Origin: Escherichia coli
GTDB lineage: Bacteria; Pseudomonadota; Gammaproteobacteria; Enterobacterales; Enterobacteriaceae
Reading direction: 5' to 3' (one strand)
DNA: 31,056 nt
Assembly (NCBI RefSeq): GCF_003334335.1
Contig: NZ_QOWQ01000047.1
Under the pieces are notes generated by a model. The model saw nothing but the letters and a program-made list of their open reading frames with translations, searched no databases and was not told the origin of the DNA. A program made the translations under genes and the position numbers. This document shows, one piece after another, positions 2,691 through 12,731 of this stretch; position 1 is the stretch's first letter, and every line of letters begins with the position of its first letter.

Positions 2691-3221
2691 ATGAAGCTAA
2701 CAGAAGAAAGTCTGAATCTAGTCATTGACATCCTGAATGATTTGATCTGTGAAGGAAAAATGCTGAACGATGTGGAGCGCAGATCTCTGCTCAATGCAGT
2801 TATGGCAATTACAGCGGTAAAAGAACGTTCTGTCGTATCTGTATCATCCCGAAAAGAGCAAAGTAAGAAGGAGAAGAAGGAAAGAGAGATCGATCCTCGT
2901 TTCCCAAATGCTGGTGTGGCATGGAATGAGGCAGACGAGAGTTTATTGCGAGATGTTCTGGAGGATGTACCGGACGATGAAATTGGTAAACACCTTTTCT
3001 GGCTGGCAGAGAAACTAGGGCGAACCCCGTACAGTGTAGCCTGTAAAGTCAGACAAATTAAGAAATTACCTGCAGAATGGAAGGATCAATTTCGTAAAAT
3101 CTCTGACAGGATCCGTAGTTCTGGAATGTCAGTCAGTGAATATCTACAACGCCAGGGACTGTTAAGCCCAGAGTCAGGGGAAGAAAACAATCCTGTCAGT
3201 CATAACAACAATGTAGCTTAA
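2691..3221 (+). CDS. Hypothetical protein (176 aa) with a Lys/Glu-rich central linker and a possible C-terminal HTH-like region; unknown family
   Basis: Clean ATG start at 2691, KEQSKKEKKERE low-complexity segment, stop at 3219-3221 followed by a hairpin; sits in the island cargo slot. No family recognised. Confidence 0.45.
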   Translation: MKLTEESLNLVIDILNDLICEGKMLNDVERRSLLNAVMAITAVKERSVVSVSSRKEQSKKEKKEREIDPRFPNAGVAWNEADESLLRDVLEDVPDDEIGKHLFWLAEKLGRTPYSVACKVRQIKKLPAEWKDQFRKISDRIRSSGMSVSEYLQRQGLLSPESGEENNPVSHNNNVA

Positions 3222-5708: not shown

Positions 5709-7214
5709 ATGCCATTCAGCAATTCTTCCCTCTCCGCGCAAGTGAAATCATATCTGACGTTTCTTCCTGAAGAAATACGCCAGAAAATCCTTGAACATCT
5801 CCACGGTGTTATTCATTACGAGCCCGTGATTGGCATTATGGGTAAATCCGGCACCGGCAAGAGCAGCCTGTGTAATGCCATTTTTCAGTCCCGTATCTGC
5901 GCCACGCATCCCCTGAACGGCTGCACCCGCCAGGCTCATCGTCTTACCCTGCAGCTCGGTGAACGCAGAATGACGCTGGTCGATCTGCCCGGCATTGGTG
6001 AAACACCGCAGCATGATCAGGAATACCGAGCGCTTTATCGTCAGTTACTGCCGGAACTGGATCTGATTATCTGGATCCTGCGGAGTGATGAACGTGCGTA
6101 TGCTGCCGATATTGCCATGCATCAGTTTTTACTGAATGAGGGCGCAGATCCCTCGCGCTTTCTGTTTGTTCTCAGCCATGCCGATCGCATGTTTCCTGCT
6201 GAAGAATGGAATGCCACAGAAAAATGCCCGTCCCGTCACCAGGAACTCTCACTGGCGACAGTAACAGCCCGGGTGGCCACCCTGTTCCCTTCATCATTTC
6301 CGGTACTCCCCGTAGCCGCGCCTGCAGGCTGGAACCTTCCAGCGCTGGTGTCACTGATGATCCACGCGCTGCCACCACAGGCAACCAGCGCAGTTTATTC
6401 ACATATCCGGGGGGAAAACCACTCTGAACAGGCCCGGAAACACGCACAACTGACTTTTGGTGAAACCATCGGGAAAAGTTTTGACGACGCCGTTGCCCGT
6501 TTCAGTTTTCCGCCCTGGATGTTACAGCTTCTGCGCAAAACCCGGGACCGCATTATCCACCTGCTGTTCACTGTGGCATCCTTCTCCACCTCCGCCGGTA
6601 ACTGGGCTGTCAAAAACGGCTGGTGCCAGACCATGACGGAAGATGGTCAGGCGCTGGTAATGCTGAAAAATGGCACGATTGGTATTACCGGCCTGATGCA
6701 GGGATGCCCGAATGGCGTACAGACGCTCCTGGGCAGCCGTATCAGTATTAACGGTAACCTGATCCCCACATCACAAATGTGTAATCAGCAGACGGGATTC
6801 AGGGCTGTTGAGGTGGAAGTCGGACAGGCGCCGGAAATGGTCAAAAAAGCCGTTCACTCCATAGCAGAGCGTGATGTGTCCGTTTTACAGGCATTTGGTG
6901 TACGAATGGAATTCACCCGCGGTGATATGCTGAAGGTCTGTCCGAAATTTGTCACATCACTTGCCGGTTTTTCCCCGAAACAGACACCCGCCATTAATAA
7001 AGATTCCGTCCTGCAGGCTGCCCGGCAGGCATACGCCCGGGAATATGACGAGGAAACAACAGAAACCGCTGATTTTGGCTCTTACGAAGTAAAAGGCAAT
7101 AAGGTTGAGTTTGAAGTGTTCAATCCTGAAGACCGTGCGTACGACAAAGTGACCGTCACGGTTGGTGCTGACGGTAATGCCACCGGTGCCAGCGTTGAAT
7201 TTATCGGAAAATAG
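5709..7214 (+). CDS. YeeP/YfjP/YkfA-family P-loop GTPase with an extra ~210-aa C-terminal extension
   Basis: Walker A motif GKSGTGKSS near residue 45 and a DLPG motif; the N-terminal ~290 aa resemble K-12 CP4 GTPases (about 287 aa, from memory). The ORF runs on to 501 aa. Confidence 0.7.
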
Positions 7215-7219
7215 CTGGT

Positions 7220-7453
7220 ATGTCGGACTGTCACCCTGTTTTATTGCCCGAAGGCCCTTTCTCACGCGAACAGGCGATGGCTGTCACAACAGCTTACCGC
7301 AATGTGCTTATTGAAGATGATCAGGGAACGCATTTCCGGCTGGTTATCCGCAATGCTGAAGGGCAGCTACGCTGGCGGTGCTGGAATTTTGAACCTGATG
7401 CCGGAAAACAGCTTAATGCGGGGCTCGCCAGTGAGGGAATTCTCAGGCAATAA
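7220..7453 (+). CDS. DUF905-like small protein (YkfF-like) of the CP4 island backbone
   Basis: 77-aa ORF with ...[19 protein letters not shown]...HFRLV...WNFEPDAG..., recalled as the DUF905 family. From memory only. Confidence 0.5.
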
Positions 7454-7551
7454 ACGTCTTCATTTCATCCATCAGGCCACGTCTTCTCCGGGAGACGTGG
7501 CTTTTTCATTTATTACACCAGTAAATCTTAACCACCAATAAGGAGCAAATC

Positions 7552-9500: not shown

Positions 9501-9722
9501 ATGAAAATCATCACCCGTGGTGAAGCCATGCGTATTCACCGTCAGCATCCAGCATCCCGTCTTTTTCCGTTCTGTACCGGTAAATACCGCTGGCACGGTA
9601 GCACGGATACGTATACCGGCCGTGAAGTACAGGATATTCCCGGTGTGCTGGCCGTGTTTGCTGAACGCCGTAAGGACAGTTTTGGTCCGTATGTCCGGCT
9701 GATGAGCGTCACCCTGAACTGA
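9501..9722 (+). CDS. DUF987-family small protein (YeeT/YkfH-like)
   Basis: 73-aa ORF in the conserved position between the RadC-like gene and the CbeA-like antitoxin. Confidence 0.55.
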   Translation: MKIITRGEAMRIHRQHPASRLFPFCTGKYRWHGSTDTYTGREVQDIPGVLAVFAERRKDSFGPYVRLMSVTLN

Positions 9723-9801
9723 GTCTGGAAGGGCATTCAGAAGAGCAGAATTATCGCCACCACCGGACCATTCTTAACCAATTTTCTGTGAGGATTTTAT
9801 C

Positions 9802-10170
9802 GTGTCAGACACATTCTCCGGGACAACGCATCCCGATGACAATCACGACCGCCCCTGGTGGGGACTGCCCTGCACCGTGACGCCCTGTTTTGGTTCCCGT
9901 CTGGTACAGGAAGGCAACCGGTTGCATTACCTTGCCGACCGCGCCGGTATCAGAGGGCGGTTCAGCGACGCGGATTCGTACCACCTGGACCAGGCCTTTC
10001 CGCTGCTGATGAAACAACTGGAACTCATGCTCACCAGCGGTGAACTGAATCCCCGCCATCAGCATACCGTCACGCTGTATGCAAAAGGGCTGACCTGCGC
10101 AGCCGACACCCTCGGCAGTTGTGGCTACGTTTATATGGCTGTTTATCCGACGCCCGAAACGAAAAAGTAA
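9802..10170 (+). CDS. Type IV antitoxin of the CbeA/YeeU/YafW/YfjZ family
   Basis: 122-aa ORF directly upstream of a CbtA-like toxin gene; sequence pattern recalled as YeeU-like. Confidence 0.7.
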   Translation: MSDTFSGTTHPDDNHDRPWWGLPCTVTPCFGSRLVQEGNRLHYLADRAGIRGRFSDADSYHLDQAFPLLMKQLELMLTSGELNPRHQHTVTLYAKGLTCAADTLGSCGYVYMAVYPTPETKK

Positions 10171-10259
10171 CTCTCCAGAATAACCTTCTGCTCCGGCCTG
10201 GTGCTTTCACCACGCCACTTTTCCATTTTTCATCTCTGCATATCAGGAAAATCTTCAGT

Positions 10260-10637
10260 ATGAAAACATTACCTGTATTACCCGGGCTGGCGGCCAGTTC
10301 ACGCCCGTCTCCGGTTGAAATCTGGCAGACACTGCTCACCCGACTGCTGGATCAGCACTACGGCCTTACGCTGAATGACACACCATTCGCTGATGAACGT
10401 GTGATTGAGCAGCATATTGAGGCAGGCATTTCACTGTGTGATGCGGTGAACTTTCTCGTTGAAAAATACGCGCTGGTACGTACCGACCAGCCGGGATTCA
10501 GCGCCTGTACCCGTTCTCAGTTAATAAACAGTATTGATATCCTCCGGGCACGCCGGGCAACCGGCCTGATGACACGCGACAACTACAGAACGGTAAATAA
10601 CATTACCCTGGGTAAACATCCGGGGGCGAAACAATGA
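10260..10637 (+). CDS. Type IV toxin of the CbtA/YeeV/YkfI/YpjF family
   Basis: The track ORF starts at 10119, but the start consistent with the family is the ATG at 10260 (MKTLPVLPGLAAS...), giving about 125 aa and leaving a 90-bp gap after the antitoxin stop. Confidence 0.7.
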   Translation: MKTLPVLPGLAASSRPSPVEIWQTLLTRLLDQHYGLTLNDTPFADERVIEQHIEAGISLCDAVNFLVEKYALVRTDQPGFSACTRSQLINSIDILRARRATGLMTRDNYRTVNNITLGKHPGAKQ

Positions 10638-11056
10638 AACAGGCCCTGACGCTGGAAGCCGACAGCATTAATGCGCAGGCGCTGAACATGGGGCGCATTG
10701 TCGTTGACGTCGATGGTATTGAGCTCGCTGAACTGATTAACAAAGTCGCTGAAAACGGTTATTCACTCCGCGTGGTGGATGAACGTGACGCTACCGAAAC
10801 ACCGGCGACTTCTGCCAGCCCTCATCAGTTGCCGGAAGACAATACAGTGATACAGAGCGTGATGCCATTAACCACTGAAACAGCGCTGGATATCCTCATT
10901 GCGTGGCTGCAGGACAATATCGACTGCGAATCGGGAATTATCTTTGACAACGATGAGGATAAAACGGATTCGGCAGCACTGTTGCCCTGTATCGAACAGG
11001 CCCGGGAGGATGTCCGGACTCTTCGTCATCTGCAGCTTCTGCACCAGAACCGGTAA
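10634..11056 (+). CDS. YeeW-like protein (unknown function) downstream of the toxin
   Basis: 140-aa ORF whose ATG overlaps the toxin stop in an ATGA junction at 10634-10637; acidic composition. Confidence 0.45.
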   Translation: MKQALTLEADSINAQALNMGRIVVDVDGIELAELINKVAENGYSLRVVDERDATETPATSASPHQLPEDNTVIQSVMPLTTETALDILIAWLQDNIDCESGIIFDNDEDKTDSAALLPCIEQAREDVRTLRHLQLLHQNR

Positions 11057-11140
11057 ATATCACTCACCATACTTCATTCCACTGACGTCAGCCTGAACAG
11101 GGCTGGCGTTTTCGTTTATAAACCAAAAGGGAAACCGATC

Positions 11141-11983
11141 ATGTCAGACATCACAATCTCCCGTCCGGAAGTGGTCACCGGGCATACGGACGTTATCTGC
11201 TCAATCAGTATCCGCCACATTCTGGCTGTACGAAAGAGTACACTGCTGCAAATCGACACACTTATCCGGCAACTGGCTGAAATATCAGCAATGACAGAAA
11301 GTATTGGCGGTAAAGCCGCCCCGGACTGGGCCATGAAACAGGATTTTCGCTGCGGCTGCTGGCTGATGGAGAAACCGGAAACCGCAATGAAAGCCATCAC
11401 ACGCAATCTCGATCGCGAAATCTGGCGTGACCTGATGCAACGTTCAGGGATGCTTTCCTTAATGGATGCACAGGCCCGTGATACATGGTACCGGTCACTG
11501 GAGCACGATAATTTTCCGGAAATCAGTGAAGCGAACATTCTGAGCACATTTGAACAACTACACCAGAATAAGGATGAGGTGTTTGAGCGAGGGGTGATCA
11601 ACGTCTTCAGGGGACTGAACTGGAATTACAAAACCAATTGCCCCTGCAAATTTGGCAGTAAAATTATCGTCAACAACCTAGTGAGGTGGGACCGATGGGG
11701 GTTTCATCTTATCACCGGGCAACAGACTGACCGACTCGTCGACCTGGAAAGAATGCTACATCTGTTCAGCGGCAAACCGATCCCCGACAACCGGGAAAAC
11801 ATCACTATTCGTCTGGATGGTCACATCCAGTCCGTTCAGGGTAAAGAGCGCAATGAAGACGAGATGTTCATCATTAAATACTTTAAGAAGGGATCTGCAC
11901 ACATCACTTTCAAAAGGCTGGAACTGATTGACAGAATTAACGATATAATAGCCAGGTACTTTCCTTCTGTGCTCTCAGCCTGA
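11141..11983 (+). CDS. DUF4942-like protein, last gene of the island before the attachment-site repeat
   Basis: 280-aa ORF; the family name is recalled from annotations of similar islands and is not verified. The antisense ORF 11116-11601 was rejected. Confidence 0.5.
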   Translation: MSDITISRPEVVTGHTDVICSISIRHILAVRKSTLLQIDTLIRQLAEISAMTESIGGKAAPDWAMKQDFRCGCWLMEKPETAMKAITRNLDREIWRDLMQRSGMLSLMDAQARDTWYRSLEHDNFPEISEANILSTFEQLHQNKDEVFERGVINVFRGLNWNYKTNCPCKFGSKIIVNNLVRWDRWGFHLITGQQTDRLVDLERMLHLFSGKPIPDNRENITIRLDGHIQSVQGKERNEDEMFIIKYFKKGSAHITFKRLELIDRINDIIARYFPSVLSA

Positions 11984-12093: not shown

Positions 12094-12115
12094 TTCGATT
12101 CCGAGTCCGGCACCA
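12094..12115 (+). other. pheU: 3'-terminal 22-nt fragment of tRNA-Phe (pheU) without the rest of the gene: island attachment-site repeat (attR-type junction)
   Basis: TTCGATTCCGAGTCCGGCACCA matches the 3' end of E. coli tRNA-Phe (...GGTTCGATTCCGAGTCCGGGCACCA) with one G missing. The upstream bases are AT-rich island DNA, not tRNA. Confidence 0.6.
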
Positions 12116-12125
12116 AATTCATATA

Positions 12126-12155
12126 AACGGACCTCCACGGAGGTCCGTTTTTCGT
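12126..12155 (+). terminator. Intrinsic terminator (native pheU terminator) directly after the tRNA fragment
   Basis: AAACGGACCTCCACGGAGGTCCGTTTTTCG: a GC-rich stem (CGGACCT / AGGTCCG) followed by a T-run. Confidence 0.6.
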
Positions 12156-12731
12156 TTCAGGACGCCACGATTTAAGCGTTCTGCCTCCAAATCAATTCTA
12201 CCGAACTCAACCAGATTCTCCCCACATCACCAGCAATTTGCGGGCATATCCCAATTCGGGAAAATTTGTTCCTGAGCTATAGCACTAACTGACGTGAAAT
12301 GTCGTGCGGCCCCGTGATGCTGTTGAACGTCAAATGACGTCATCAGGAGCGTAACGCATCCATAAAGCACAACACCGGTCTGAACGGCGACTGATGAGAT
12401 TTTCTGAATGAGAACAAAGAGAAATGTATCAGTTCGCTTGCTCATGCAAAGACTAACAATCCATTAAAATAGTAAGTGCTCCGGACAATTTTCCATGGAT
12501 TATTTTCTGAACATTTTTCTTTGGCAAAGATGATGAATTTTGATGGTAAGGAATATTACTTCTGGTTCTCAGTAAAATCCTTTCGTAATACTATGTAATC
12601 AAGAAGTTTATGGCTGGTAAAAATAACGTCTTGCATTCACCAATAATATGTAAATAAACCCATCTATAGATGGTAAAAATAGGTTGTGGCAATTATCATT
12701 GCATCATTCCCTTTTCGAATGAGTTTCTATT

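Follow-up and report, generated by a model that had tools for sequence, protein, structure and literature searches.

A CP4-44-type cbeA-cbtA module followed by a two-domain YeeW-like/DUF957 gene near the right end of an Escherichia coli pheU island

A stretch of Escherichia coli DNA of 31,056 nucleotides, referred to here as the window, carries a copy of the type IV toxin–antitoxin module cbeA-cbtA. The explanation that we hold with high confidence for the region as a whole is that a CP4-44-type cbeA-cbtA pair lies near the right end of a pheU island and is followed by an intact two-domain third gene, the translation of which is probably coupled to that of the toxin. The initial annotation had placed three open reading frames in this region, and all three were found there on the same (+) strand, both in the list of open reading frames and in the raw sequence: an antitoxin gene at 9802–10170, a toxin gene at 10260–10637, and a third gene at 10634–11056. 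The toxin–antitoxin pair itself offers nothing new, being already catalogued and very common. The third gene is, by the sequence comparisons given below, a genuine selected protein-coding gene, an intact YeeW-like/DUF957 fusion and not a pseudogene remnant.

Identity and prevalence of the toxin–antitoxin pair

The antitoxin gene, of the cbeA/yeeU type IV class, begins with GTG, is preceded by a GAGGA Shine-Dalgarno (SD) sequence at 9790–9794, and encodes 122 amino acids. Its product matches the Pfam family CbeA_antitoxin (PF06154) with an E-value of 2.6e-53 over model positions 1–100 of 101. Searches against Protein Data Bank (PDB) sequences recovered the YeeU crystal structures 2H28 and 2INW at approximately 1e-77 and the YfjZ structures 2EA9/2JN7 at approximately 2e-41. 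Global alignment with the K-12 proteins, taken from NC_000913, gave 90% identity to CbeA, 60% to YafW, and 63% to YfjZ. The gene stands directly upstream of the cbtA-family toxin gene, and no + strand sigma-70-like site was found upstream of it by a crude promoter scan with chance-level output. In a separate context, the CbeA, YagB, and YfjZ antitoxins have been reported to be translocated into recipients via the F-plasmid type IV secretion system (PMC11288057), a report that suggests a possible role of the CbeA antitoxin family in conjugation.

The toxin gene, of the cbtA/yeeV type, begins with ATG downstream of an AGGA motif at 10245–10248 and encodes 125 amino acids. The protein matches the Pfam family CbtA_toxin (PF06755) with an E-value of 3.4e-58, all 112 model positions (1–112) being aligned from residue 1, and a search against PDB sequences returned nothing significant. 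In the same global alignments, it is 96% identical to K-12 CbtA, 58% to YkfI, and 63% to YpjF. In CbtA, changing R15 abolishes the interaction with MreB, and changing F65 abolishes that with FtsZ (PMC5624674); the alignment to K-12 CbtA shows both residues retained in the window toxin.

Profile matching was carried out with Pfam, as CbeA, CbtA, the third protein, DUF987, and DUF4942 are all without an NCBIfam model. The earlier reading of the two genes as a CbeA/CbtA-type pair had been made subject, beforehand, to a profile search as its refutation test; similarity to both families proved significant, and the two E-values exclude chance. Alignment with YeeU/YeeV and with YafW/YkfI, proposed at the same time, placed the pair nearest to YeeU/YeeV (90%/96%, vs 60%/58% for YafW/YkfI). 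Since both proteins are closer to K-12 CbeA and CbtA than to YafW/YkfI or YfjZ/YpjF, the pair is, on sequence, a CP4-44-type (YeeU/YeeV) copy of the module.

The likeness to the CP4-44 locus of K-12 extends to gene order, with a yeeT-like gene, cbeA, a spacer of about 89 nt, cbtA, and a yeeW gene that overlaps the toxin gene by ATGA, as well as to the full-length Pfam matches of both partners and the retained R15 and F65. The window copy differs in being placed in a pheU island beside cadC, and its toxin has one additional C-terminal residue relative to K-12 CbtA. The YafW/YkfI pair of CP4-6 and the YfjZ/YpjF pair of CP4-57 belong to the same two Pfam families and are likewise preceded by antirestriction, RadC, and DUF987 genes. 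However, they share only 58–63% identity with the window proteins, their antitoxins lack the 17-residue N-terminal extension, their spacers are about 20 nt long, and in K-12 no yeeW-like gene follows the toxin.

The initial annotation had described the arrangement as a known one, and database records bear this out. The exact toxin sequence is present on 57 NCBI contigs and the exact antitoxin on 51, under the names CbtA and "YeeU family antitoxin", and both gene order and names assigned by the NCBI annotation pipeline (PGAP) are identical in the matching E. coli loci. A 1.8-kb region was matched in 4,981 of 5,426 complete E. coli genomes (~92%), at a median of three places per genome. With the exact proteins already in NCBI and similar DNA in so many genomes, the pair is therefore not novel.

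Start of the toxin gene and the intergenic spacer

The toxin start had been placed at 10260 rather than at 10119, the start of the longer open reading frame, and this placement holds. The Pfam alignment begins at the first residue after the ATG at 10260, and PGAP calls the same 378-bp toxin gene in near-identical loci. The 89-nt interval between cbeA and cbtA (10171–10259, + strand), within which the AGGA motif lies, shows indels of 1 nt in K-12 and in a second copy (locus L012), and in O157 it is replaced by an unrelated spacer of 46 nt; an upstream extension of the toxin therefore cannot be coding. The TTG codon at 10119 was considered as an alternative start and rejected, as the 1-nt indels of sister copies between 10119 and 10260 break the frame.

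Among CP4-44-type copies, this spacer is nearly as conserved as coding sequence, though it is non-coding. It is possible that a toxin promoter or some other regulatory element lies within it.

The third gene and its link to the toxin

The third gene begins with ATG and encodes 140 amino acids. Its start codon (10634–10636) overlaps the toxin stop codon TGA (10635–10637), forming ATGA at 10634–10637 on the + strand; the initial annotation had pointed out this overlap, which can be read directly from the sequence and is kept in other copies. The same 4-nt overlap was found in nine E. coli copies, in locus L017, and, as GTGA, in locus L015. An SD-like GGGGG run lies at 10622–10626, 7 nt upstream of the ATG and inside the 3' end of the toxin gene; sister copies have GGAGG at this position vs GGGGG in the window. 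With a start codon that overlaps the toxin stop and an SD-like G-run that lies within the toxin coding sequence, the gene is probably translated in coupling with the toxin.

Two domains were recognized in the encoded protein. A YeeW-like/DUF5983_N domain spans amino acids 4–57 (nt 10643–10804, + strand; Pfam PF25638, E 2.1e-28), and a DUF957 domain spans amino acids 76–140 (nt 10859–11056, + strand), the latter assigned by similarity to an O157 DUF957 protein with which the C-terminal 65 amino acids are 94% identical. The gene had previously been described simply as YeeW-like. This description fits its first part, as the N-terminal 64 residues are 75% identical to K-12 YeeW and the 4-nt overlap with the toxin is the same, but it is incomplete, since the gene also carries the fused DUF957 part. 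In Pfam searches of the 140-aa protein, the DUF5983 C domain PF19419 gave no match, and DUF957 gave none in the Pfam-A release used. The motif WLxDN...IFDND..TDS..LLP of the DUF957 part is conserved across 41 sequences, and a 140-aa UniProt entry, A0A2X7NJP3, is 97% identical to the window protein.

An AlphaFold2 model built from the 41-sequence alignment, with a mean pLDDT of 75.6, predicts a small N-terminal domain consisting of a β-hairpin plus a helix, a disordered linker at residues 54–73, and a two-helix C-terminal domain with a pLDDT of about 70–93. Foldseek comparison of this model with the PDB gave nothing below E = 1, and comparison with AFDB50 returned family members only, with no fold-based functional lead. 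Sequence and profile searches of the third protein against the PDB also gave nothing significant. A full-text literature search found no functional study of yeeW; in one survey of genomes, DUF5983 is named as a "partner" downstream of CbtA, purely on the grounds of adjacency (PMC10790755).

An intact fusion or a decayed remnant

The third reading frame could alternatively be a decayed remnant, that is, a truncated DUF5983 pseudogene next to an independent 65-aa DUF957 gene, with the continuous frame an accident of two deletions. PGAP labels all matching loci in this sense, as "DUF5983, partial, missing C-terminus" followed by a 65-aa "DUF957 domain-containing protein", although the near-identical E. 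coli loci carry the same continuous 140-aa reading frame. The short-type linker occurs in 918 of 5,426 complete E. coli genomes and is annotated as split every time.

The deletions in question emerge from comparison with the long form of O157:H7 F1273, which encodes a 163-aa DUF5983 protein comprising the N domain and the PF19419 C domain (residues 70–163, E 3.2e-22), followed 11 nt downstream, in another frame, by a separate 65-aa DUF957 gene. The two loci agree in the position of the gene, the ATGA overlap, the homologous N domain, the DUF957 part (94%), and the downstream hairpin and DUF4942 gene. Two segments of the long form are absent from the window, one of about 275 nt that corresponds to the C domain and one of 11 nt that contains the stop codon, with the result that a single frame runs from the N domain through a short linker into DUF957. 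A search for repeats in the surroundings of the module gave nothing beyond short ones at chance level, and it revealed no microhomology to account for the deletion. The linker stop in K-12 and in locus L013 and the internal GTG/ATG codons (10859/10862) ahead of the DUF957 part also speak for decay.

Several lines of evidence argue against this reading. The 140-codon frame is open in eight of nine short-type copies, despite DNA differences of up to about 10%; the exception, L013, has the K-12-type stop. By the Nei-Gojobori method, dN/dS of the whole third reading frame, measured against more diverged copies, is 0.10–0.24 at a dS of 0.2–0.3, compared with 0.11–0.19 for cbtA. These estimates are rough, resting on small counts and on few, non-independent, and possibly recombining pairs, as are those for the separate parts, at about 0.1 for DUF957 (dS ~0.35), 0.3–0.5 for the N domain, and likewise below 0.5 for the linker.

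Furthermore, the fused architecture is not confined to close relatives of the window copy. A scan of 1.84 billion representative proteins yielded 199 relatives of the third protein, and three of them, P0011 (134 aa), P0015 (121 aa), and P0017 (118 aa; GCA_000496755.2), show the same two-domain layout at 48–60% identity, with linkers shorter than that of the window protein. The genes for P0017 and P0015 stand directly after cbtA with the 4-nt overlap and are followed by a DUF4942 gene or a terminator-like hairpin; at L015 (GCA_000496755.2), the fused gene is followed by both. The P0011 gene, unlike that of the window, adjoins a DUF4942 gene with no toxin–antitoxin pair.

The long form also appears not to be the ancestral state. 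In L015, the PF19419 C domain is encoded at 2774–3094 by a free-standing gene for 106 amino acids, upstream of cbeA and at the position that DUF987/yeeT occupies in E. coli. Since this domain exists there as a separate gene, the E. coli long form, with its DUF5983 N and C domains, looks like a derived mosaic rather than an ancestor from which the window gene decayed. The free-standing gene is also an example of the domain as a movable module.

The 64-aa yeeW gene of K-12, also of the short type, has TAA where the window has the codon for E68 (GAA), together with an internal deletion in the DUF957 part, whereas the window gene is intact at 140 amino acids; on this alignment, K-12 yeeW is a nonsense-truncated copy of the fused form. 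The stop at codon 68 in some copies, including K-12 and L013, indicates that the fusion is dispensable in those strains. Taken together, the open frames, the dN/dS values, and the distant fusions make decay an unlikely explanation, and the third gene is best read as an intact YeeW-like/DUF957 fusion.

Transcript end and island context

A terminator-like hairpin with a T-run was found by a scan at 11084–11110 on the + strand, between the third gene and the DUF4942 gene. It folds at −20.1 kcal/mol (z −2.5) and recurs in conserved form at nine loci, with a T-G position of the stem changed to C-G; L015 has a comparable hairpin after its fused gene. Because this conserved hairpin comes after the third gene, cbeA-cbtA-yeeW plausibly forms the end of one transcription unit. 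Wen et al. considered the upstream genes to be part of the same operon (PMC5371832).

Immediately upstream of the module lies a yeeT-like DUF987 gene (9501–9722, + strand), named so by PGAP in matching loci and matching PHROG 14887 at 1.5e-36. Downstream, the last gene of the island is a DUF4942 (methyltransferase-like) gene at 11141–11983 (+ strand), assigned by PGAP and matching PHROG 6263, "DNA methyltransferase", at 4.4e-15. Overall, PHROG searches with the neighborhood proteins gave weak or unnamed matches only. The backbone of the island is the usual one; headed by a GTPase-family gene, it runs in the order DUF905, DUF932, antirestriction, RadC/JAB, DUF987, cbeA, cbtA, yeeW-like, and DUF4942.

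The right boundary of the island is marked by a 22-nt copy of the 3' end of the pheU tRNA gene (12094–12115, + strand), identified by alignment to the K-12 pheU-cadC region. One G is missing from this copy; from 12094 onward, the sequence is otherwise identical to K-12 pheU-cadC DNA, with the native pheU terminator at 12125–12150 and K-12-identical DNA beyond it up to cadC. The module thereby belongs to a genomic island integrated at pheU and lies 1–2.3 kb in from its right end. No intact tRNA was found in the window, and the intact pheU must therefore lie beyond its left edge; an Rfam search of the window found no RNA families.

Three further observations concern the surroundings of the module. 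On the minus strand, 12227–12445 corresponds to a frameshifted tyrosine-recombinase fragment annotated in E. coli records and known as yjdQ in K-12; its location, in the interval from the pheU remnant to cadC, is beyond the limits of the present island, and it was presumably left behind by an earlier insertion. At the other end of the backbone, the 501-aa GTPase-family reading frame (5709–7214) runs straight to DUF905, and the Ag43 and YeeR genes present in CP4-44 and in locus L001 are absent. A strong terminator-like hairpin of 13 pairs lies at 7474–7503, in the 3' end of the DUF905 reading frame (7302–7541) and just before DUF932.

Proposed activity and biological role

In K-12, CbtA binds FtsZ and MreB independently and blocks both division and elongation (PMC5624674), and CbeA bundles FtsZ and MreB filaments with no binding of the toxin, a type IV mechanism (summarized in PMC5624674). 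By homology, the window CbtA would likewise bind FtsZ and MreB independently and block division and elongation, and the window CbeA, at 90% identity, would bind and bundle the polymers of both proteins and thus counteract CbtA without binding it. The third protein would be made by coupling to toxin translation through the ATGA overlap and the G-run, and the transcript of the three genes would end at the hairpin at 11084–11110.

What the third protein contributes is a more tentative matter. The gene is truncated in K-12, and CbeA, YafW, and YfjZ each rescue alone there (PMC5371832); the third protein is therefore not needed for neutralization in K-12, where its gene is truncated or absent. As a possibility that we consider doubtful, though not remote, the fused YeeW-like/DUF957 protein may be a real third component, produced in a fixed ratio to the toxin by way of the conserved 4-nt overlap and either modulating toxin activity or linking the module to the neighboring DUF4942 gene. 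At 1216–2518 of locus L014, the fused gene encoding P0011 is immediately followed by a DUF4942 gene and has no CbeA/CbtA pair next to it. This arrangement hints that the functional tie of the third gene could be to DUF4942 instead of the toxin.

The initial annotation had suggested that the pair may stabilize the island, as would an addiction module acting by post-segregational killing. Toxin–antitoxin modules on mobile elements often act in this way, and the location of the present one, within 2.3 kb of the island end and in the conserved backbone, would suit such a role. The K-12 data nevertheless lean against classical addiction. All three antitoxin genes of the CbeA family can be deleted in K-12, the operon is expressed at a low level and autoregulated by neither partner, and the antitoxins of paralogous pairs can stand in for one another in neutralization (PMC5371832). 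CbeA, moreover, targets what the toxin targets and not the toxin itself (PMC5624674), and a median of three copies per E. coli genome would blunt dependence on any one island. We therefore regard stabilization of the pheU island by addiction as unlikely.

Defense roles are common among toxin–antitoxin systems, and the module lies on a mobile island beside antirestriction and methyltransferase-like genes, a setting compatible with anti-phage defense by abortive infection in which the third protein would act as sensor or modulator. Yet none of the eight neighboring proteins matched a PADLOC model, and the literature searched contained no published phage phenotype, leaving defense a quite improbable role.

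Annotation of the third gene and implications

A 2026 preprint makes an independent case that a family classed as "spurious" by AntiFam, found beside DUF5983 and cbtA, is genuine; programmed frameshifting is the mechanism that it puts forward (bioRxiv 10.64898/2026.06.09.728211). The DUF957 part described here is probably the AntiFam ANF00264 region of that preprint. A programmed ribosomal frameshift as the source of the fused and separate DUF5983/DUF957 annotations would fit the variable annotation noted there and the long-form DUF957 frame 11 nt downstream of DUF5983, but it is extremely improbable, as both parts already share one frame in the window and need no frameshift, DNA indels account for the difference between the window and the long form, and the long form has a stop codon and a separate start with its own AGGAA Shine-Dalgarno sequence.

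An intact 140-aa fusion calls for a correction of annotation, since current records systematically split a conserved gene, present in 918 of 5,426 genomes, into a pseudogene fragment and a small DUF957 gene, and the DUF957 half may even be listed in AntiFam as spurious. Functional work on CbtA and CbeA has all been carried out in K-12, where the third gene is present only in truncated form, and any role that it may have in the module has consequently stood outside that work. Should the third protein prove to be a real component of the module, "type IV toxin–antitoxin pairs" of this family would be three-gene systems when intact, with the intensively studied K-12 copies as degenerate forms of them.
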